A stretch of DNA of 64,000 bases, from the IMG/VR virus record IMGVR_UViG_3300025936_000018, one strand, 5' to 3'. Origin of the DNA: a virus. Taxonomy: Duplodnaviria > Heunggongvirae > Uroviricota > Caudoviricetes. The position numbers and the translations under genes are program-made. Every line of letters begins with the position of its first letter. Positions within the stretch are counted from its first letter, which is position 1. Positions 1,068-63,081 of this stretch are shown piece after piece. The notes beneath the pieces were generated by a model, which saw nothing but the letters and a program-made list of their open reading frames with translations, had not been told where the DNA came from and did no database searches.

Positions 1068-2122
1068 CACTTCGCTCCGGCGATGACACCGATCTTGCTC
1101 CCACCGGGCCAGCACGAGAAGCCGGCCGGGACAGGCTGGTTCTCCTTGACCATCTCGCCGAGGATCGTCATGCACTGCGCGACGAGGACGTTCGGTGACG
1201 TGTCGACCGACTTCGCGAGCGCCTTGTTGGCCTCCGCGAGCTTGACGTTCGTCTGGCGCTGCTGCTCCGCGATCAGGGTCGACGCGAACTGCTGCTGTAG
1301 CTGGTTGATTCGGTTCTGCGTCGCGGAATCGAACGTGACGATCGGGATGATCGTGTTCAGGATCTCAATCCCCTCGACGCCGATCTCCCGCTTCATCTGC
1401 TCGGTCACCGCGTTCGCGATGTCGGACAGCGACGGGTTCTTCTTCCCCGTCGTCGCGGCGGCGGCAATCGAGTTGAGCGGGTTGTAGTCCTTGAACTGCT
1501 CGTTCACGGCGGCGGTCAACTCACGCGTGACGAGGCTGTCGCGGACGTGCTCGAACGTGCGGTAGTTCTGGAAGAGCTCGTCGCTCATCGCCGGGTTGAT
1601 CCGCCACCGAATGCTGATCGACACGTCGGCGGTCTGCTGGTTCCCGATGCGGACCGCGATGGGTGCGCCGTTGTCGTTGTTCGCTCCGGTGTAGCTGTCG
1701 GTCTGGATCGCGGCGTCCATCTCGGTCACGCTCTCCCACGGCGCGATCAGGTGCGGCCCGTTGCCGACGTGTCCGCTCACCGCGCCGAACGACGTGACGA
1801 TGCCCTCGTTCTTCGTCGACACGATCGCGAACGAGAAGCCGAGCGTCTCGAGCACTGCGATTACGAGCAGACAGATCAGCGCGATCTTCGACACCTTCCG
1901 CTGGATCGCGTACGAGTCGGCGTTGGCCAACTTGGGCGCCGGCGGCGGCATGTACCGCCCCTGCCCGGCGTCGATGGCCTGCCGCTTCGCTTCCTCGTCC
2001 GCTGCGGCATGAGCGGCGAGCTCTTTCGCGTGTGTGTCGAGATGACGTTCCGCGCTGCGCTTCAGCAGCCACGCGACGAGCGCCGCGGCGAGAAGCAGTG
2101 CGGTGATGACGATCCAACCCAT
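1067..2122 (-). CDS. SPFH/band-7 (stomatin/prohibitin/HflK-like) membrane protein
   Basis: 351 aa; N-terminal TM helix (IVITALLLAAALVAWLL); central SPFH-like core (VSISIRWRINP...FQNYRTFEHVRDSLVTRELTAAVNEQF); C-terminal coiled coil (QQQFASTLIAEQQRQTNVKLAEANKAL). Confidence 0.7.
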   Translation of the reverse strand: MGWIVITALLLAAALVAWLLKRSAERHLDTHAKELAAHAAADEEAKRQAIDAGQGRYMPPPAPKLANADSYAIQRKVSKIALICLLVIAVLETLGFSFAIVSTKNEGIVTSFGAVSGHVGNGPHLIAPWESVTEMDAAIQTDSYTGANNDNGAPIAVRIGNQQTADVSISIRWRINPAMSDELFQNYRTFEHVRDSLVTRELTAAVNEQFKDYNPLNSIAAAATTGKKNPSLSDIANAVTEQMKREIGVEGIEILNTIIPIVTFDSATQNRINQLQQQFASTLIAEQQRQTNVKLAEANKALAKSVDTSPNVLVAQCMTILGEMVKENQPVPAGFSCWPGGSKIGVIAGAK

Positions 2123-2748
2123 GTGCGTTTCCTCCTAGTGGTGAACCTTGCGGGATAGGTACAACCGTGGTGCGTGAGCGGCCTGCTCAGCCAGCGCGAA
2201 GGTCCTCCGGGACCGCCGACTCGGACAGGCCAGCGGCGAGCGCGAGCGGCGCGCGGGAGATCCGGCCGGATGTTCTTCCAGAACCGGTGCGCCTGCCTGA
2301 TCGCGCGCTTCGCTTCGGCGTGGATCTGCGCGCGGTCGCGCTCGTTGGTCGCGCCGAGGTAGAGCGCCTTCGACCAGCGCAACTCCTCGCCGACCCACTC
2401 GCCGTGATCGTTGTCCTTCGCCTCCTCGATCAGCGCTTCGGAGAACTGGCCGTCCTCGGCGAGCGCGGCGCGGCCGGCGTCGGTGATGTAGAAGTCGGCG
2501 CTCGCGCGCGGCTCTCGGTATTTGATCCGAACGAGCCCCTTGCGCTCGAGCGCGAAGAGCGTGCCGCGCCACGAGTGGCCGACGCGGAATGCGGGGCGCT
2601 CGTTGTCGCCGGCGAGGACACCGATGCGGACGGGTGCGAGCGGCCGGTCGGCGCCGGCGAGCACGGTGAGAGCGGCGAGCTCGCGCTCGGAGAGCTGCGT
2701 GGCTACCGCCACGCGAACGTCCTCCCGAGCATCCCGAGCAGCGTCCAC
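2062..2748 (-). CDS. winged-helix DNA-binding regulator-like protein (3' end uncertain; overlaps the SPFH start)
   Basis: N-terminal 170 aa look genuine (GVLAGDNERPAFRVGHSWRGTLFALERKGLVRI = wHTH-like); C-terminal tail is Arg/Pro-rich and may be read-through. Overlaps the annotated SPFH start by 60 nt. Confidence 0.4.
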   Translation of the reverse strand: MDAARDAREDVRVAVATQLSERELAALTVLAGADRPLAPVRIGVLAGDNERPAFRVGHSWRGTLFALERKGLVRIKYREPRASADFYITDAGRAALAEDGQFSEALIEEAKDNDHGEWVGEELRWSKALYLGATNERDRAQIHAEAKRAIRQAHRFWKNIRPDLPRAARARRWPVRVGGPGGPSRWLSRPLTHHGCTYPARFTTRRKRTWVGSSSPHCFSPRRSSRGC

Positions 2749-2888
2749 ACCGCCGCGATGACGAGCCAGACGACCTCGATCATCGGCACGCGGCCGCCGC
2801 CGAGTGCGATGACGAACGCGCCCGAGACGAGTCCGCCAATGCCGAAGAACATCGAGCGGCCGAAGAACCGCAGCACTCGCCGAAGCAT
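2703..2888 (-). CDS. small membrane protein (2 TM)
   Basis: 61 aa, hydrophobic (FGIGGLVSGAFVIALGG...VVWLVIAAVWTLLGML). Confidence 0.4.
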   Translation of the reverse strand: MLRRVLRFFGRSMFFGIGGLVSGAFVIALGGGRVPMIEVVWLVIAAVWTLLGMLGRTFAWR

Positions 2889-3128
2889 CTAGGCGACGGC
2901 CTTCTCGCGTCGGACCCAGACGGCGACGGCGCTTGGATACGGCTTGCCGTCACGCATGAATGCTCGCTGCTCGACGCGCACGTTCTCCTCGCCGTACTTT
3001 TCGTGGAGCTCGGTGAGTGCGTCGTCGATGCCGGGCGCGTACGCCGTCGCCTTGCGCGCGTAGTTCGAGAGGAAACTCCAGTCTCCGACATCGTCCCATA
3101 GAGGGGTAGCAGCAGAGCGCTCGTCCAT
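2889..3128 (-). CDS. hypothetical protein
   Basis: 79-aa acidic ORF; start preceded by the TAGTAC..TCGTAC leaderless-promoter-like motif (3131-3148). Confidence 0.45.
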   Translation of the reverse strand: MDERSAATPLWDDVGDWSFLSNYARKATAYAPGIDDALTELHEKYGEENVRVEQRAFMRDGKPYPSAVAVWVRREKAVA

Positions 3129-3227
3129 CAGTACGACTGTACTACAAGCGTCGGAGCACCGCTAGGCCGTACGCAGTGGTGTAGACGCCATGCGATTACA
3201 CCAATACGACGGAATCGGCCCGATCCG

Positions 3228-3908
3228 TCAAGCAGTGGTGACGAACTGCGCCGCGGCGTCAAGCGCGGCGGCGGCCCACTCCTCGAGCTCCATGCCGGCG
3301 TCGCTCGCGGCCGCGCGCCAGCGGTGCACGCGGTCATCGACCTCGAACTCGAGCGTGAGCTGCTCCGGCAGCGCGACGACCTCGGCCGGCACGCGCGGCG
3401 CGCGCGGAGCTCGCTTCTCGACCGCGGTCTTGATCTTCGCCGCGGTCGCGGGACCGTCCGCGCTGGCCTCCGCGAGCGCCTCGCGCAGCGCCGGCGGATC
3501 GTCGAGCAGCGGAACGAGCTCGCGCGCCTGCCGCTCGTTCGGAATGGCAACCATGGTTGACACTTGTGCCGCCTCAATCATCTGGTGGCCGCGCTGTCGC
3601 GAGAAGCCGAACTGCTCCTTGCAGTACGCCTCGAAGCTGCTGTGCTCGTCGCGGTAGAGCCGGCGGTCGCGGATCTCGAGCAGCGCCATTCCGACCTCGG
3701 CGAACGTCTTCAGGCCGGCGCGGACGATCTGCTCGAGCTCTTGGACGCGCTCATGCTCGGCGTCGGTCAACGGCTCGAGCGCCGGCGTGGCCGCGGAGCC
3801 GAGACTCAGCCGCTCAACGCTGGCCTGCTCCGGCGCTGGCTCGCCGCGCTCGCATCGCTTGCAGAACGACGTCGCCGGCGTCCCGTGCGGGCACGTCTTC
3901 TCAGCCAC
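3228..3908 (-). CDS. DNA-binding protein, DUF3102-like (LYR..FE.YC..FG.S motif)
   Basis: Motif LLEIRDRRLYRDEHSSFEAYCKEQFGFSRQRGHQMIEAAQV is typical of a phage HTH family. Start reassigned to GTG 3908, overlapping the upstream stop (GTGGCTGA). Confidence 0.5.
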   Translation of the reverse strand: MAEKTCPHGTPATSFCKRCERGEPAPEQASVERLSLGSAATPALEPLTDAEHERVQELEQIVRAGLKTFAEVGMALLEIRDRRLYRDEHSSFEAYCKEQFGFSRQRGHQMIEAAQVSTMVAIPNERQARELVPLLDDPPALREALAEASADGPATAAKIKTAVEKRAPRAPRVPAEVVALPEQLTLEFEVDDRVHRWRAAASDAGMELEEWAAAALDAAAQFVTTA

Positions 3909-4089
3909 GAGTCGTGCTCCGCTCGAGCTCTGCCACGCAGCGGTCGCAGTCCTTCCGGTACGACGGGCAACCCTCGTCCTGGTGGAGCGCGAGATCGAGC
4001 GCGTCACGAGCTCGCTGCGCCCAGTTGTGATCGCCGCTGTAGCTGCCGAGCAGCCGCCGGACTACCTGCGGCAGCACCGGCTCAGCCAC
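3901..4089 (-). CDS. hypothetical protein
   Basis: GTG start at about 4087 (VAEPVLPQVV...); acidic C-terminus with Cys pairs. Confidence 0.35.
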   Translation of the reverse strand: MAEPVLPQVVRRLLGSYSGDHNWAQRARDALDLALHQDEGCPSYRKDCDRCVAELERSTTRG

Positions 4090-4270
4090 GCTTGCCCTTC
4101 GTGAAGCGGTGCCACCAGCGCGGCCGGTCAACGGCGTGCCGGCGGGCGATGTCAGCGACAGCGTGGAGGCCCGAACGGTCGAGCTCGTCGGCCATCGCCA
4201 TCGTTACCGGCCGGCGCGGGATGTCCGGCAACGTGATCAACGAGCGCGCGGCGAGGTCCTCGTTCATCGA
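4082..4270 (-). CDS. hypothetical protein
   Basis: Internal Met start MNEDLAARSLITLPD...; the upstream part of the ORF is Arg-rich noise. Confidence 0.3.
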   Translation of the reverse strand, partial: SMNEDLAARSLITLPDIPRRPVTMAMADELDRSGLHAVADIARRHAVDRPRWWHRFTKGKRG

Positions 4271-4665
4271 ATCGCTCCGATCTCTCGCGCGTTGGCGTAC
4301 GCGGCGTGACTGTCGTAGACGAGTCGGCCGCGCTGACTCGCGGTTAGCTGCGCGACGAGCATCGCGAGAGCGAGGCCGGCAGCCGAGCGCGCGTCTCTGA
4401 CCGCTTCGTCGGCGAGCCATTGCTCGTAGTTGTCGTCCTCGCAGATCGCGTGGAGGAAGTTGATCTCCTCGTACAGTCCCTCCGCGATCGCGTGGTCGAT
4501 CACGCGCTGAACTTCGGCAACGGTCGGTCGTCTGCCGGCGAGTTTGCCGTCGGTCACGTCACGATCCGCGCCGTGCTCGAGCCTCGATGTCGGCGAGCTC
4601 CTGCCGGCCGCGGTTCGTCGTCCACCGATCCGGCTGCCCCGGGATCGGCGTGTCGTCCGTCTCAC
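4264..4665 (-). CDS. hypothetical protein (start uncertain)
   Basis: C-terminal 100 aa have balanced composition (VIDHAIAEGLYEEINFLHAICEDDNYEQWLADEA...). Confidence 0.35.
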   Translation of the reverse strand: MRRTTRRSRGSRIGGRRTAAGRSSPTSRLEHGADRDVTDGKLAGRRPTVAEVQRVIDHAIAEGLYEEINFLHAICEDDNYEQWLADEAVRDARSAAGLALAMLVAQLTASQRGRLVYDSHAAYANAREIGAIR

Positions 4666-5730: not shown

Positions 5731-6657
5731 TTAGGTCGTCATCACTCCTCCGGCGCGGAGAATAGCGTCAGCGCCCTCCGCGCGGAGGCGCTCGAGCATG
5801 TCCCTCGCAGACGACGGCGTGATGCCGGAGAGCCGCGCGAGCTCAGCCGGGAACGGCCAGTAGCCCTGCCGCTCGAGGTACTCGAGCGCGATGTCGCGCG
5901 ACGTCAGGCGCCGGCTGGGATCCGATGGGCGCGCGAGCGCGCGTCGCGCTTGGTGGACGGTGCTCGCGGTGCCGTGGATCTCGAAGCCGATGGAGTAGCC
6001 ACGCGCGCGCAGGCCTGTGTCGTTCATGCAGAGCCGGCAGCTCGAGCACGTCACGTCGTCGCGAGTCTGCGCCGGGCACGGCACGATGTCGGCGCCAGAG
6101 TGGGAATAACGCGACGCGTCGCGGAATCCGTCGACGACGAGCGATGTCGCGTAGCCGCGCGCGCGGGCGAGCTCGACTTGCTCGGCCGTCTCGCACGAAG
6201 CGAGCACCGAGACGCGACCCCACGATTCGCGGTCGACGAGCCGCCACGCGTGCGTGTACGTCCAGACGGTCCCGCCACCGCGATCCATGTAGCGCTCGGC
6301 GGCAGCGGCGACGATCCGCGCGGCTTCGTCGGTGCGGCAGTCGCCGACCGTGTGTAGCCGCATCGGTCGGCCTTCTATGGTTGAACCATAGAGCGCGTCG
6401 ATCGCCGCGGCTTCCTCGAGCGCAACGGTGTGAGGATCGGCGTGTGAATATTCAGCAGCTTCATTCAGCGGCTTCGTCACGCCGGTGTAGAGCCGCCCGT
6501 TCTCGGCGTAGCAGCCGCCGCCGTTGAAAAACACGCAGGAGCTCGGGCATGAAGCCTGCGCCGCGTAGGTCGTCGCGCAGTCGCCGATCTTGGCGTTGTT
6601 GCTCTTCGCGACCGCGATCGCCAGGATGCCCTGTTCGGTAGAGAGTCCGCGCTTCAT
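5731..6657 (-). CDS. Cys-cluster protein with C-terminal winged helix (SCPSSC...GGGCYAE motif)
   Basis: 308 aa; N-terminal Cys motif resembling the DUF5131 (Gp37/Gp68) GC..CYxE signature; a second cluster VPCPAQ...CSSCRLC; C-terminal wHTH (RDIALEYLERQGYWPFPAELARLSGITPSSARDMLERL). Confidence 0.55.
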   Translation of the reverse strand: MKRGLSTEQGILAIAVAKSNNAKIGDCATTYAAQASCPSSCVFFNGGGCYAENGRLYTGVTKPLNEAAEYSHADPHTVALEEAAAIDALYGSTIEGRPMRLHTVGDCRTDEAARIVAAAAERYMDRGGGTVWTYTHAWRLVDRESWGRVSVLASCETAEQVELARARGYATSLVVDGFRDASRYSHSGADIVPCPAQTRDDVTCSSCRLCMNDTGLRARGYSIGFEIHGTASTVHQARRALARPSDPSRRLTSRDIALEYLERQGYWPFPAELARLSGITPSSARDMLERLRAEGADAILRAGGVMTT

Positions 6658-7976
6658 CGGTCGAGCTCATGCTCGAGCGCGTCGGCTGCGGCGCGCATGC
6701 CCGCGATCAGCGCTCGCGCATAGGCATGCGGCAAAGATACTTCAACTCCCTTTTCGGGCGATGTCTCGTGAATATTTTCGTGAATATTCCGCACCCCGTT
6801 TTCGCGCTCTCGCGCCTCGAACGCGTGCGCGGCGTCGCGGATCTTCTCGGCGAGCGCGCGCGACTGGTCGATGGCCTGCTCCGCCTTCGGCTCGTTGCCG
6901 TCGAAGCGCGCCTGCTCCGCGACCCTCTGGCCATCGTTCTCGATCTCGTCGGCGGCCATGTACGCCTCTTCCGGCGTGGCGTACGTGAGACCGGTCCCGC
7001 GCACGCGTACGCGCTTCGCCGGCGCGGCCGCTGGCTTGAGCGGTACGCCGCCGCGCGTCGGCCGCGGGAAGCCGGCCGCCTCGATCGCGTTCGCCCACGA
7101 GCCGAACCGCGCCTTCACGGTCGACGTCGTCGGGTAGCCCTCTATGTGGCGAGCCCACTCCGTCGATGTCGGCGGCTCGCCGTACTCGCGGCGCCAGCGC
7201 TGGATCGCGTCGATGATCTCGGCCTTTTCCCACGCGCGCCGGCGCGCTTGCTCGTTCTCGGGGCGGGACGGCTCCTCGCCGACCTCTGAAGCCGGCGGAG
7301 CCGAGACGGAAACCGAGGCAACCCCGCCCGGCCCTTCTGCATCCGCCATCGGTTCCCGCCCCGATTCGTGCCCGGGAAGCGCGTAGACGCCGCGCTCGAC
7401 TCGGACGATCTTCCCCGACTTGACGTGCGGCAGCAGCCAGCCGCCGATGTTCTCGCTCGAGTAGCCGACTAGCGCCGCGAGATCCGCGAGCCGTTGCGGG
7501 CCCAGCTCGAGCGCAGCCATGACTTCCTTGAGCAGCTGGCCGCGCGCGCGGTGCGGCCGGCGCTCGGCCGGCGCGCTCGAGGACTGATCCGGAACTGATC
7601 CAGAACTGAGCTCGCCGCTCTCTTCCGGATCATCGAGCTCGTCATCCTGCTCGAGCACGTCGTCGACGTCGAGCAGCGCTTCGATGTCGATCTCGGGCTC
7701 GACCTCGCGGAGAGGCTCGCCGGCGTCCATCCGATCCAGGAGCGCGCGCCCGTCGACAGCGCCGGCGCTCACGCCTGCCGCCAGCGCCGGACATGCACGG
7801 CTCGTTGGACCGCCTGGATAGTGCGGTACCGGCTCGAGATCAGCCTCGCAGCCGCAGCCAGAACACGTCTCGACCGTCTCGCCGTGATCGCGACGCCGAT
7901 CGACGTTCGCGACCGATGACCGGTAGTCGATGAAGTTCGGCTGCCACCGCTCGACGTCGCCGCCGGTGAGACCCAC
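6654..7976 (-). CDS. protein with zinc ribbon, winged helix and homing-endonuclease-associated repeat
   Basis: 440 aa; ETCSGCGC ribbon; wHTH (VMAALELGPQRLADLAALVGYSSENIGGWLLPHVKSGKIVRV); EWARHIEGYPTTSTVKARFGSWANAIEAAGF resembles an HNH-associated repeat. ATGA coupling to the downstream gene. Confidence 0.5.
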   Translation of the reverse strand: MGLTGGDVERWQPNFIDYRSSVANVDRRRDHGETVETCSGCGCEADLEPVPHYPGGPTSRACPALAAGVSAGAVDGRALLDRMDAGEPLREVEPEIDIEALLDVDDVLEQDDELDDPEESGELSSGSVPDQSSSAPAERRPHRARGQLLKEVMAALELGPQRLADLAALVGYSSENIGGWLLPHVKSGKIVRVERGVYALPGHESGREPMADAEGPGGVASVSVSAPPASEVGEEPSRPENEQARRRAWEKAEIIDAIQRWRREYGEPPTSTEWARHIEGYPTTSTVKARFGSWANAIEAAGFPRPTRGGVPLKPAAAPAKRVRVRGTGLTYATPEEAYMAADEIENDGQRVAEQARFDGNEPKAEQAIDQSRALAEKIRDAAHAFEARERENGVRNIHENIHETSPEKGVEVSLPHAYARALIAGMRAAADALEHELDR

Positions 7977-58642: not shown

Positions 58643-60223
58643 TCATGGCTGGATAGACCCGTCCGTAGATGCCGTGCCAACGACGTCGCCATCCGAGACT
58701 CCGGTCGGAGCGATCGACCCGTCCGCAGCGACGATCGCGACGATCATCCCGTCCGTGACGCCGATCATGACCGCAGCGGGTCCGAGCGTCTCGAACGGCA
58801 ACACGACGAACGCCGAGATGAACTCCGTGCCCTCAAGCGTTTCGTAGGGGAGATCGGCGACATGCGCGAGCCCGACGAGCGTCTCGAACGGAATGACGGC
58901 CGTCTGCGAGACGTTCCCGGCCGAAGCGAGCGTCTCGTACGGAATGCCGGCGGCGGCCGCGAGACCCTCGAGCGTCTCGTACGGATTGGCCTCGAGCGCG
59001 CTGACGAGCTCCGCCAGCGTCTCGTATGGCAGCTGGTTCGTGAAGGCCACGCCGGCGAGCGTCTCGTAGTCGAGCGTGGCGTCGGCTGAGATCCCGGTGA
59101 GCGTCGAGTACGGCAGTGCGCTCGAGGTTGCGACCGCGCGCAACGCGGAGTATGGAAGCTGCCGAGCCTCCGCAATGGCGGCGAGCGTCTCGTACGGGTC
59201 GCCGGCCGTGGCCGCGACTCCGACGAGCGCCTCGAATGGGAGGGATCCCGTCAATGCGAGAGCGACGAGCGTTTCGTACGGAATGAGCGCCGTCGAACGG
59301 AGCGCGGCGAGCGCCTCGTACGGCAGCGCGCCCGACTTCGCGATGCCAGCGATCGTCTCGTACGGAAGCTGAGCGGTCGCGGCGAGCGCACGGAGTGTCT
59401 CGTACGGCAACTGGCCGGACGCCGCGAGAGCTCGCAGCGCCTCGTACGGCAGAGCTCCGGACTTCGCTAGCCCGGTGAGCGTCTCGTACGGATCGCCGAG
59501 CGACTTCGCGATCCCCTGCATGCTCTCGTACGGGAGAACAGCGGTGTTGGTGATCGCGACGAGTGGTCGAAACGAAGCGATGGTTAGTGCGACGAGGGTG
59601 TTGTTCGGATCGCCGCGATGCGTGAACGTACGCGTGTCGGAATCGGCCACCGAGTTGCCCGTCGTCACGCCATACGCGAAGGCATAGTGGTCGCGGGTCG
59701 AGGTTCCGTTGTTGTTGACGGCGTTCGCGGTCGCTCCGTTGTTGTACGTGTCCGTCCCGGTCGTGTTCGCAGCGGTGAGGTACTGGATGACGCACGCTGT
59801 AACGATGAGGGAACCCGCTACAGCGTCGGCCGCGGCGGCGGTTGCGACGCAGCCGCCGGAGGTCGTGTCGTCTGCGATGCCGTCGCCGACCTGATCCAGA
59901 GGGGAGACGTAGGCGGCACCCGCGAACTCCGAGAGTTGCGCCGTGAAGATGGTGCCAGCCTTCGCGGTAATGGTCGGGGCCGCGTCTGCGCCAGCGGCGA
60001 CCTTGTAGAAGAGCGTCGACGAGCATGAGCCGTTCTGTCTCTGACGGGCGACGCTCCATCCGGACGGCGTGTCGGGCAGCGTCGTAGTGCGCGTCCCAAC
60101 CACCTTCAGGATCAGGAGGTTGTTCGCAGTGCGGGACTCGCCGGTCCCCCACGCGGGCGTGACGCTCGCTCCTGCTGTGCCTTGAGAGACGGCACCTTCC
60201 GATCCGACTAGCGTGATTGCCAC
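58643..60223 (-). CDS. structural (fibre-like) protein with about 18 tandem 14-aa LPYETLxxLAxxxx repeats
   Basis: Repeats PYETLTGLAKSGAL/PYEALRALAASGQL/PYETLRALAATAQL...; 42-bp DNA periodicity with conserved core gagcgtctcgtacgg. Confidence 0.6.
   Translation of the reverse strand: MAITLVGSEGAVSQGTAGASVTPAWGTGESRTANNLLILKVVGTRTTTLPDTPSGWSVARQRQNGSCSSTLFYKVAAGADAAPTITAKAGTIFTAQLSEFAGAAYVSPLDQVGDGIADDTTSGGCVATAAAADAVAGSLIVTACVIQYLTAANTTGTDTYNNGATANAVNNNGTSTRDHYAFAYGVTTGNSVADSDTRTFTHRGDPNNTLVALTIASFRPLVAITNTAVLPYESMQGIAKSLGDPYETLTGLAKSGALPYEALRALAASGQLPYETLRALAATAQLPYETIAGIAKSGALPYEALAALRSTALIPYETLVALALTGSLPFEALVGVAATAGDPYETLAAIAEARQLPYSALRAVATSSALPYSTLTGISADATLDYETLAGVAFTNQLPYETLAELVSALEANPYETLEGLAAAAGIPYETLASAGNVSQTAVIPFETLVGLAHVADLPYETLEGTEFISAFVVLPFETLGPAAVMIGVTDGMIVAIVAADGSIAPTGVSDGDVVGTASTDGSIQP
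58840..59560 (-). repeat. 42-bp in-frame tandem repeat array (about 18 units)
   Basis: Recurrent gagcgtctcgtacgg every 42 nt on the plus strand; encodes the 14-aa repeats. Confidence 0.7.
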
Positions 60224-60225
60224 AG

Positions 60226-60996
60226 CTAGCGCCTACGTTCTTGACCAGCACGGATCTGTGCGATACGCAACGCCCGAATCTCCGGGTCGGCCCACTCGCG
60301 GCGTCTCGTCTCAGCGATAGATGCGCGACCTTCCGCGCTCTTCTGACAGCGACCCTCGGCGTTTGCGATCCGTAGCGACTCGCTGATCTTCGCTCGCGAC
60401 TCCGGGGTGTGGCGGAACGTCTTGCGCTTCTCGCGAAGGACGCCCTTTGTTTCGTCTCCGTGCGACCGTCCGTAGAACGAGTTCCCTTCGCCGCGCATCC
60501 GCTCCGAATGCTCCCGCGCCGCCCTGACTTGAGCCTCTGAGCGCGGCTCACCGCGTCTAGCGATGTGCGCTGCGCTGATAGCGCGACCAGCGCGTGCGCG
60601 GACCTCTGGATCGCGCGCCGCTTCGACCCCTCGCCTGCGTCCCTCTTCTTGCTTCCGCCTACCCTCATCGGTAAGGCCACGAAATCCGTCTCCGCCCTCG
60701 GTCATGTTGCAGAGCCGAGCGCCATCGCCCCGTAGCTGCGCGATCCAGCGCTGCTCAGCATCGTCGAGATCAGTCGTCTCTTCGAGGACGATGAGGAGAG
60801 GCTTCTCCTGAAGAGATCGCAGCCACGCTCGCAACCTCCGCTGGCTACCAGCACCGCGACGGAGAGGCTTCTGTGCGACGGCGAGATGCTCTCCCAAGCG
60901 AGTACGGGGAGATCGCGTCGTCTGCCCGACGTAGCGAATCTCCTCCGTTTTCGGATCAGCGAGCGCGTAGATCGTTCCACCTTTCATCAGCGACAT
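60226..60996 (-). CDS. GIY-YIG homing endonuclease with NUMOD3-like repeats
   Basis: GTIYALADPKTEEIRYVGQTTRSPRTRLGEH (GIY...YIG...R...E); C-terminal SESRAKISESL / NSFYGRSH repeats. Confidence 0.8.
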   Translation of the reverse strand: MSLMKGGTIYALADPKTEEIRYVGQTTRSPRTRLGEHLAVAQKPLRRGAGSQRRLRAWLRSLQEKPLLIVLEETTDLDDAEQRWIAQLRGDGARLCNMTEGGDGFRGLTDEGRRKQEEGRRRGVEAARDPEVRARAGRAISAAHIARRGEPRSEAQVRAAREHSERMRGEGNSFYGRSHGDETKGVLREKRKTFRHTPESRAKISESLRIANAEGRCQKSAEGRASIAETRRREWADPEIRALRIAQIRAGQERRR

Positions 60997-62433: not shown

Positions 62434-63081
62434 TTACGTGATCGGCTGCGAGCCCCAGCCGCAGAGCGCCGTCGGGAGCTCCGTGTCGAAGAACCACTGC
62501 CCGTTCTTCCCGACCGCGGCGGTGAGGTCGTCGTAGATGCCCTCGCCCCAGTTGTCGTTCGCGACCGAGAAGCCGGTGAACTTCGGCTGGTCGAAGTCGT
62601 TCTGGAGCGTCTCCGGGCCGCGCTGCCAGCGCGACGCCGGGAACACCCAGCGGCGGTACGGATACGGCGCGGACGGCTGGTGGTCGCAGTCCCAGAGGTC
62701 CTGCCATGCCTCGAACGCGACGTACGGCTGCTGCGAGCCGCACGGCACCTGGAACTGCACGCCGATCGGCTCGCCGTCGTCGTCGACGATCGCGGAGCCG
62801 CCGGTGAGGAGCTCCTCGAGCGCCGGCAGGGTCTTGCCCATGTCGAGCTCGAGGTTGAACCGCTTCAGGATGTCCTGGCCGCGGTACGTGGCGACGAGCT
62901 GGTCGCAGCCACCCTTCAGGTCCTTGACCTCGCCGGCGAGAATGTCCGGCGTGATCGTGAGCATCATCGGCGTGTCGTCGCAGACGTAGTTGTTCGGGCC
63001 CGCGACGGGGTTGCCGAGAGAGTCGAGTCGGGTTGCGCGGATGAAGCAGAGATGGATTGCGCTCGCGCAGACAGCGGTCAT
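62434..63081 (-). CDS. structural hypothetical protein
   Basis: 215 aa; SD AAGGAG 9 nt upstream. Confidence 0.4.
   Translation of the reverse strand: MTAVCASAIHLCFIRATRLDSLGNPVAGPNNYVCDDTPMMLTITPDILAGEVKDLKGGCDQLVATYRGQDILKRFNLELDMGKTLPALEELLTGGSAIVDDDGEPIGVQFQVPCGSQQPYVAFEAWQDLWDCDHQPSAPYPYRRWVFPASRWQRGPETLQNDFDQPKFTGFSVANDNWGEGIYDDLTAAVGKNGQWFFDTELPTALCGWGSQPIT

Follow-up and report, generated by a model that had tools for sequence, protein, structure and literature searches.

A 14-residue tandem repeat in a putative phage structural protein: member of a widespread, uncurated family and probable fibre stalk

Introduction

The phage-fibre shafts whose structures have been solved are built as triple beta-helices, triple beta-spirals, coiled coils, collagen-like segments or, in the head fibre of phi29, as a supercoil of helix-turn-helix elements. 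The last of these, gp8.5, is the closest solved analogue in build of the protein described here, which is encoded on the minus strand at positions 58643..60223 of a 64,000-nucleotide (nt) stretch (hereafter the window) of an uncultured high-GC phage, IMG/VR record IMGVR_UViG_3300025936_000018 (Caudoviricetes). phi29 gp8.5 is a capsid fibre that the phage can do without; its N-terminal base is beta-structured and its stem consists of short helices linked by turns, an arrangement that the window protein is predicted to resemble. The gp8.5 stem has a period of 26 residues, measured from its sequence, which we read as two 13-residue helix-turn halves, close to the predicted 14-residue helix-turn unit of the window protein, and the gp8.5 gene likewise lies among the head genes of the late operon. 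There are also clear differences: the phi29 stem has only about 4–5 half-units as against 18 units here, its base consists of two small beta-barrels rather than a beta-sandwich of 226 amino acids (aa), and gp8.5 is a homotrimeric three-stranded supercoil on the capsid whereas the window protein has been modelled as a monomer only.

Two other described systems are comparable in period. The head of YadA-type trimeric autotransporter adhesins is a left-handed beta-roll with 14 residues per turn, and thus has the same period in a trimeric fibrous adhesin; the window units differ in being rich in Ala, Leu and Glu, with one Pro each, and are predicted to be helical. Armadillo proteins are likewise made of helical repeats, and their 42-residue repeat equals 3 × 14.

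We find that the window protein contains a real protein-level repeat belonging to an uncurated and widespread family, which is probably another kind of phage fibre stalk. A helix-turn repeat of 14 residues that occurs in about 400 protein clusters and yet has no counterpart in Pfam, NCBIfam or the PDB would extend the catalogue of shaft folds, and would make head and tail fibres easier to annotate in actinophage genomes and in those from metagenomes.

The 14-residue repeat array

The repeat-protein gene is complete and encodes 526 aa, in agreement with an earlier computational reading of this locus (the original prediction). It starts with a GTG at 60223, two bases past the stop codon of the upstream GIY-YIG gene, and ends with a TGA at 58643–58645. 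This is the true reading frame, because GC content at third codon positions (GC3) is 0.82 in this frame as against 0.59 in an overlapping 615-aa open reading frame (ORF) at 58833–60680, and because the product has homologues down to an E value of 1e-89. The range quoted for GC3 of the gene is 0.82–0.85.

The array occupies 58760..59536 on the minus strand (aa 230–488, rather than the residues about 220–470 first assigned to it) and comprises 18 tandem 14-residue units, the number originally estimated, with the consensus L-P-Y-E-T/A-L-x-G-[LVI]-A-x-x-x-x. It has several characteristic features. First, the anchor motif [PD][YF][ES][TAS][LIM] occurs 18 times between aa 231 and 476, with twelve successive spacings of 14 residues followed by spacings of 15, 14, 17, 14 and 17. 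Units 1–13 are therefore in strict 42-nt register, as had been proposed for the array as a whole, and it is only the last five units, with their insertions of one or three residues, that depart from it. Second, residue self-identity is 0.345, 0.312, 0.335 and 0.311 at lags of 14, 28, 42 and 56, and about 0.04–0.16 elsewhere. Third, the position-specific consensus over 62 units of the four closest proteins is L1 P2 Y3 E4 T/A5 L6 x7 G8 [LVI]9 A10 x11–14; in the window protein Pro is present at position 2 in 17 of the 18 units, position 8 is Gly or Ala, and the variable positions 7 and 11–14 are small Ala, Gly, Ser or Thr residues. Finally, the composition of the array (A 19.5%, L 15.3%, E 8.4%, with K and R scarce) is helix-favouring and acidic.

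The repeat is much less evident in the DNA than in the protein. The core sequence GAGCGTCTCGTACGG (plus strand) is present in four exact copies, and in 16 when up to three mismatches are permitted, mostly 42 nt apart, so that the 42-nt periodicity first described does exist, in a far weaker form than was implied. Tandem Repeats Finder (TRF) reports just 3.4 copies of a 42-bp unit with 68% matches. Pairwise DNA identity of the units has a mean of 56% and ranges from 36% to a maximum of 76%, and the longest exact run common to units is 17 bp; the DNA array is old and diverged. With units about 56% identical and no exact match between them longer than 17 bp, the array is no obvious hot spot for homologous recombination, and the ready expansion and contraction once expected of it is unsupported for the array as it now stands.

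Predicted structure of the protein

An AlphaFold2 (AF2) monomer model of the full protein, computed with an alignment including 36 homologues, partitions it into a beta-sandwich (aa 1–226), the array (aa 230–488) and a C-terminal tip (aa 489–526). The first and last of these had escaped the original prediction, although they carry much functional information. Each array unit is modelled as one 9–10-residue helix and a 4–5-residue turn with a predicted local distance difference test (pLDDT) score of 50–60, and DSSP assigns helices only to aa 232–472. Low pLDDT values in the array would be expected if the element requires partner chains for folding.

Of the folds suggested when the array was first noticed, a fibrous stalk is the most plausible in general terms, and neither of the specific forms proposed for it agrees with the model. 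A canonical heptad coiled coil was rejected given the Pro content, the Gly or Ala at position 8 and helices of only 9–10 residues, and a beta-solenoid or 14-residue beta-roll of the YadA head type (Hep_Hag) was rejected given the helical model and the absence of any Pfam match.

We propose instead the following geometry. Helices favour Pro at their N1 position and Glu at N3, and because of these preferences P2-x-E4 is read as the start of a short helix in each unit. Residues Y3, L6, [LVI]9 and A10 would then form one hydrophobic helix face, G8 would permit close packing, and residues 11–14 together with L1 would form the turn. The units would probably stack as an oligomeric rod, probably a trimer, with a build like that of the phi29 head-fibre stem, and this stalk would act as a spacer with its length set by the number of units. 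The rise of the phi29 stem is about 1 Å per residue, on which basis the 260 array residues might span roughly 25 nm.

The C-terminal tip VTDGMIVAIVAADGSIAPTGVSDGDVVGTASTDGSIQP (58646..58759, minus strand) is DG-rich, has about four short x-D-G-x-h units and forms the small third module; its pLDDT in the AF2 model is below 40. TRF finds 30-bp and 9-bp periods in this region (58692–58766). The tip is itself a mini-repeat, each x-D-G-x-h unit being about 10 aa long, with four in the window. It is also present in the related proteins P0001 and P0003, by eye with more units, and a third relative, P0002, ends differently and lacks it.

Distribution of the repeat

There are 12 proteins matching the whole query. 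Both the N-terminal domain and the PYETL array are present in P0001–P0003 (39–44% identity), P0004–P0008 and P0010–P0012 have the N-terminal domain only, followed by quite different repeat arrays, and P0009 has a 14-mer array after a Laminin_G_3 domain, with an N-terminus that by eye resembles a distant form of the N-terminal domain. Proteins in which this domain precedes an unrelated C-terminal array include one at L007 10001–13309 and P0004, P0008, P0010, P0011 and P0012, and the units of such arrays include RTATDALSTAEA (about 20 aa), VIPGVLNLTSTEFAPT (about 22 aa) and FTANAVLKKT (13–14 aa).

The repeat is not peculiar to the window protein. Scanning 1.84 billion representatives with HMMER, using the array alone, recovers 393 cluster representatives at E≤1e-3, with 131 at E≤1e-10. 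Of the 146 top array relatives that were retrieved, 133 (91%) show their main self-similarity at a lag of 14, 28 or 42, and in 27 the strongest lag is 42. The signature common to them is P-x-E-x-L, the aromatic residue not being conserved across the wider family, and the window protein agrees with this family in having tandem 14-residue units that are C-terminal to another domain in a large phage protein. The array relatives are mostly large phage proteins in which lectin- or glycosidase-like domains accompany the repeat; the partner domains in the top 50 are Laminin_G_3 (7), BNR (4), CBM96, fn3, Big_7 and subtilase. Nine of these 50 match phrog_6079, labelled 'tail protein' (best E 6.2e-20), and further PHROG labels among the array relatives are 'virion structural protein' and 'minor tail protein'. 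The window protein itself matches phrog_6079 at E 2.7e-4 and P0009 does so at E 2.8e-9. This PHROG has the same 14-residue repeat, but the repeat accounts for just about 120 of its 605 positions and the 'tail protein' label is unverified. Taken as a sequence family, the repeat is a module of phage appendage proteins that is widespread and uncurated.

Contig L015 has two consecutive genes with the 14-mer (3–1877 and 2122–4629) located just upstream of a head-tail adaptor gene; their products are a 624-aa protein (phrog_6079 E 2.5e-13) and P0041 (835 aa).

Searches of curated collections returned little. Comparison of the repeat protein with Pfam, NCBIfam and PHROGs gave only sub-threshold or partial matches, those in Pfam at E≤1 being sub-threshold LysM, Sp-DndD, Xre-like HTH and DUF6052. 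Collagen-like, Big_2 and Phage_fiber_2 repeats were each considered and rejected, as nothing corresponding was found in Pfam or NCBIfam, nor in any solved structure, which bears out the initial impression that the array matches no such repeat. A PDB sequence search with the array gave nothing significant, no relatives turned up in GTDB genomes scanned with either the array alignment or the protein, a profile search of a 5.8-billion-protein index with the array alignment gave one match only, which was uninformative, and a literature search for PYETL-type motifs gave nothing relevant. There is no genuine tblastn match among 50,697 phage records (INPHARED) with the whole protein, its own array or two other arrays; a match in Aeromonas phage AVP3 (E 8e-4) was discarded as it lies on the strand opposite an annotated gene.

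The N-terminal beta-sandwich domain

The N-terminal domain (59546..60223, minus strand) belongs to an unnamed family. Modelled alone it is all-beta, with a pLDDT of 94.6 and a predicted template modelling (pTM) score of 0.92. It aligns over its full length with its homologues, with conserved W56, P83, E99, G102, D133, G137, N161, T187 and F218, and these homologues, at E values of 1e-28 to 1e-89, share a fold with confidence. A profile of the domain retrieves 28 clusters, most of which are stand-alone proteins of 225–250 aa, and none of the 28 has a Pfam domain or a name. Comparison with predicted viral structures (BFVD) gives 61 matches at E≤1e-3, with TM values of about 0.6–0.73, one of these neighbours being a phosphodiesterase fibre of a Microbacterium phage. 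A Foldseek search of the PDB with the full-length model, a query spoiled by its low-confidence tail, gave only non-significant matches to concanavalin A and jelly-roll proteins, and the domain profile found nothing significant among PDB sequences. We consider that the domain is most likely a ligand-binding, glycan-binding or docking module.

A scan of metagenomes shows a homologue of the domain (44% identity) at the very C-terminal end of a protein of 1123 aa, encoded at L018 3262–6633 on the plus strand of contig Ga0183100_1000009 (639,667 bp) and followed by a UvrD-like helicase gene. The N-terminus of this protein matches type IV pilins (geopilin at E 1.7e-8, and also PilE and PilA), and it has three internal repeats of about 190 aa each. 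The domain is therefore not restricted to phages, and since it lies at the end of a pilin-like bacterial protein it must be surface-exposed there, which favours a role as an adhesin or in ligand binding.

Genes for the domain are repeatedly found just downstream of, or adjoining, genes for SAM-methyltransferases, glycosyltransferases or pyruvyl-transferases in phage structural modules (L012 7449–8735; L003 8440–11005 and 13651–14892; the P0005 contig, L006, 6439–9420; L013; L014). This neighbourhood may link the domain to modification of virion or host glycans and, with the pilin-like protein, constitutes a testable lead on glycan recognition. P0005 has two tandem copies of the domain, confirmed by tblastn, and P0010 has perhaps a second copy, seen by eye only. 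Several glycosyltransferase genes are also present in the head module of the contig encoding P0040 (L009).

Cassette exchange and module shuffling

Comparison with a sister phage contig, L002, shows that the repeat gene has a different history from its neighbours. The flanking proteins are 78–94% identical and the flanking DNA about 80%, but the repeat proteins are only 39% identical, and there is no collinear DNA similarity between the two phages across 61032–58740, a segment containing the endonuclease gene, the N-terminal domain and the array. Collinear blastn similarity resumes at 58740, inside the tip, at 82.6% identity, and no part of the repeat gene other than the tip is collinear in DNA with L002. 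The repeat gene is thus a swapped cassette relative to L002, and because of its low identity relative to the flanks and the lack of collinear DNA we regard its product as an accessory, fast-evolving protein.

The gene directly upstream (60226–60996, minus strand) encodes a homing endonuclease with GIY-YIG and NUMOD3 domains (Pfam E 4.4e-5 and 2.1e-7). Because it lies at one edge of the cassette and is missing from L002, homing-associated co-conversion may have driven the swap. L002 has instead an N-terminal extension common to P0001–P0003, which is absent from the window protein.

The modules within the protein also have separate affinities. The N-terminal domain of the window protein is closest to that of P0004 (54–57% identity), and its array is closest to those of P0001 and P0003 (51–52%), whose N-terminal domains are just about 28–35% identical to that of the window. 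With the closest domain and the closest array in different proteins, the modules have been shuffled. The number of units varies among relatives, with 18 in the window, 15 in P0001, 16 in P0003 and 13 in P0002, and the gaps in the alignment of these arrays are mostly near one or two units long. To judge from these alignments, the copy-number variation first anticipated for the array does occur, over evolutionary time. The combination of a swappable binding domain, a tunable stalk and a conserved tip makes the protein a candidate natural scaffold for engineering the reach of virions or display on them.

A proposed head or neck fibre

We propose that the protein is an accessory head or neck fibre or adhesin, in which a helix-turn stalk, probably oligomeric, holds the beta-sandwich binding module off the virion; this is the explanation we favour, and we put the chance that it is correct at about even. 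The genes around the repeat gene, like every large ORF of the window, lie on the minus strand, and the gene is part of a virion-morphogenesis operon, in line with its earlier assignment as a structural protein. The next gene downstream encodes the head-to-tail adaptor (58620 to 57403, minus strand), whose homologues are found in phages of Gordonia, Mycobacterium, Microbacterium and Streptomyces at about 27–35% identity. The listed 429-aa adaptor ORF is over-extended: the true start is an internal ATG after an AGGAGG ribosome-binding site that lies 22 nt past the repeat-gene stop, so that the two genes do not overlap and the adaptor is about 405 aa long, comparable with the 406-aa gene in L002. 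The window copy of the repeat gene belongs to this head-neck block. A head or neck location appears most likely because the gene is directly upstream of the adaptor gene and because 14-mer proteins are encoded in the head-connector region of three unrelated contigs: P0040 between portal/capsid genes and a head-closure-like gene, P0041 one gene before a phrog_442 adaptor and itself directly preceded by another repeat protein, and P0045 ahead of genes of connector size, the tail tube and the tape-measure gene. Such a fibre would most likely aid reversible attachment to the host envelope. As to its polarity, anchoring by the C-terminus is suggested by the conservation of only the tip with the sister phage and by the distal position of the N-terminal domain in the pilin-like protein, and anchoring by the N-terminus by the fact that most family members are stand-alone N-terminal domains or have this domain with unrelated C-terminal arrays.

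Some observations weigh against this proposal and point to a tail-associated side fibre or receptor-binding protein of the same modular build, mounted on the tail or baseplate, which we consider unlikely and yet the most serious of the alternatives. P0009 and P0037, in which LamG is combined with 14-mer repeats and the N-termini are of other types, are the last tail genes before the endolysin and holin genes, the classical tail-fibre slot; phrog_6079 carries its 'tail protein' label; and several BFVD structural neighbours of the N-terminal domain are mycobacteriophage 'minor tail proteins'. In addition, the phrog_792 'major tail protein'-like gene (62434–63081, minus strand) is in the same block, and in both the window and L002 the repeat gene lies between it and the adaptor gene. 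Streptomyces phage Xkcd426 (L005) is annotated with the same unusual order, with the major tail protein before the adaptor, and in this group of phages the major-tail-protein-like gene is kept upstream of the adaptor rather than downstream of the connector genes, which weakens an argument for a head module relative to classical gene orders. Against a tail location, however, a canonical tail-tip block stands apart in the window, behind the gene for a 1101-aa protein, and does not include the repeat gene; moreover, in four independent contexts 14-mer proteins are encoded in the head-connector region, ahead of connector or head-closure genes. A tail location of the repeat protein retains some probability. 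With P0040, P0041 and P0045 encoded in head-connector regions and P0009 and P0037 before the lysis genes, the stalk module itself appears to serve appendages encoded in both head and tail regions.

Two further points against a head or neck fibre concern the structure rather than the location. The helical array is modelled at a pLDDT of only 50–60, and as a monomer, and hhalign detects no relationship with the stem of phi29 gp8.5 (probability 0.2%); a phmmer search of the PDB likewise did not return the 3QC7 or 6QYY chains, and homology to that stem was therefore rejected. A broader proposal, which we consider possible without being likely, is that the P-x-E-x-L 14-mer is an undescribed fibrous fold, an oligomeric helix-turn supercoil convergent on the phi29 head-fibre stem, and that it serves as a length-tunable stalk in head and tail appendages of hundreds of uncultured phages. 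The window protein would perhaps have the opposite polarity, the conserved DG tip at its C-terminus being the anchor and the swappable N-terminal beta-sandwich a distal lectin, and the linkage to methyltransferase and glycosyltransferase genes could mean that the domain recognises glycans that the phage builds or modifies. The significance of the protein would grow if the stalk were a new oligomeric fold, or if the link of the lectin-like domain with the methyltransferase and glycosyltransferase genes proved functional.

The helices could alternatively be arranged as a monomeric alpha-solenoid, an ARM- or HEAT-like superhelix acting as a binding scaffold rather than an oligomeric rod, and this we regard as quite improbable. 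It is true that the AF2 monomer folded into helices, that the array has weak PDB matches to designed armadillo proteins (best E 0.0099), and that 27 of the 146 relatives have their strongest lag at the corresponding 42 residues. However, the PDB match is non-significant and a consequence of periodicity, the monomer model is of low confidence, the helices are equal in length, unlike H1, H2 and H3 of ARM repeats, and lags of 14, 28, 42 and 56 are equally strong in the window protein, which argues against a three-helix super-repeat. An armadillo or HEAT fold was accordingly rejected.

Slightly less probable again is that the repeats are multivalent units binding cell-wall polymers, analogous to choline-binding or LysM arrays, with the array itself as the ligand-binding element. 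Each unit has a conserved aromatic and acidic pair (Y3 and E4), array relatives co-occur with carbohydrate-active domains, and the LysM score is near threshold, at 20.4 bits against a cut-off of 20.9. It nevertheless falls below this cut-off with no stretch significant alone, and LysM was rejected on these grounds; moreover, P-x-E is fully accounted for as a signal that starts the helix, family-wide conservation is confined to P, E and L and does not include the aromatic, and the small residues at the variable positions 7 and 11–14 offer no binding surface. As for an assembly artefact, which was considered at the outset as grounds for refutation, or a non-coding repeat, we give these next to no credence, since the units are 36–76% identical in DNA with a longest exact repeat of 17 bp, so that reads cannot collapse, GC3 is high, and four independent homologues from other samples retain the same repeat.

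Other features of the window

In order of transcription, the genes upstream of the repeat gene are a phrog_779 gene, the phrog_792 gene, and genes for an acidic 170-aa protein, a 288-aa protein with a weak match to phrog_34360, and the GIY-YIG/NUMOD3 endonuclease. Downstream are the adaptor gene (phrog_783), a phrog_810 gene, ORFs of 244 and 240 aa, and the gene for the 1101-aa protein, which is in the position of the tape measure. This is followed by a Dit-like gene, genes for proteins of 690, 1091 and 205 aa, and a PG_binding_1 lysis gene. Three of the neighbouring proteins had no significant match among PDB sequences, no match above 85% identity came up when the 20-kb structural region was compared by megablast with 50,697 deposited phage genomes, and no tRNA genes were found in the window. 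Beyond the tail genes, the lysis gene is accompanied by genes for an N6/N4 DNA methylase, a RecT-like protein, a HerA-like helicase and a DUF5131 protein. L002 has seven small reverse-strand genes (5755–7400) between its adaptor and phrog_810 genes, a block that the window lacks.

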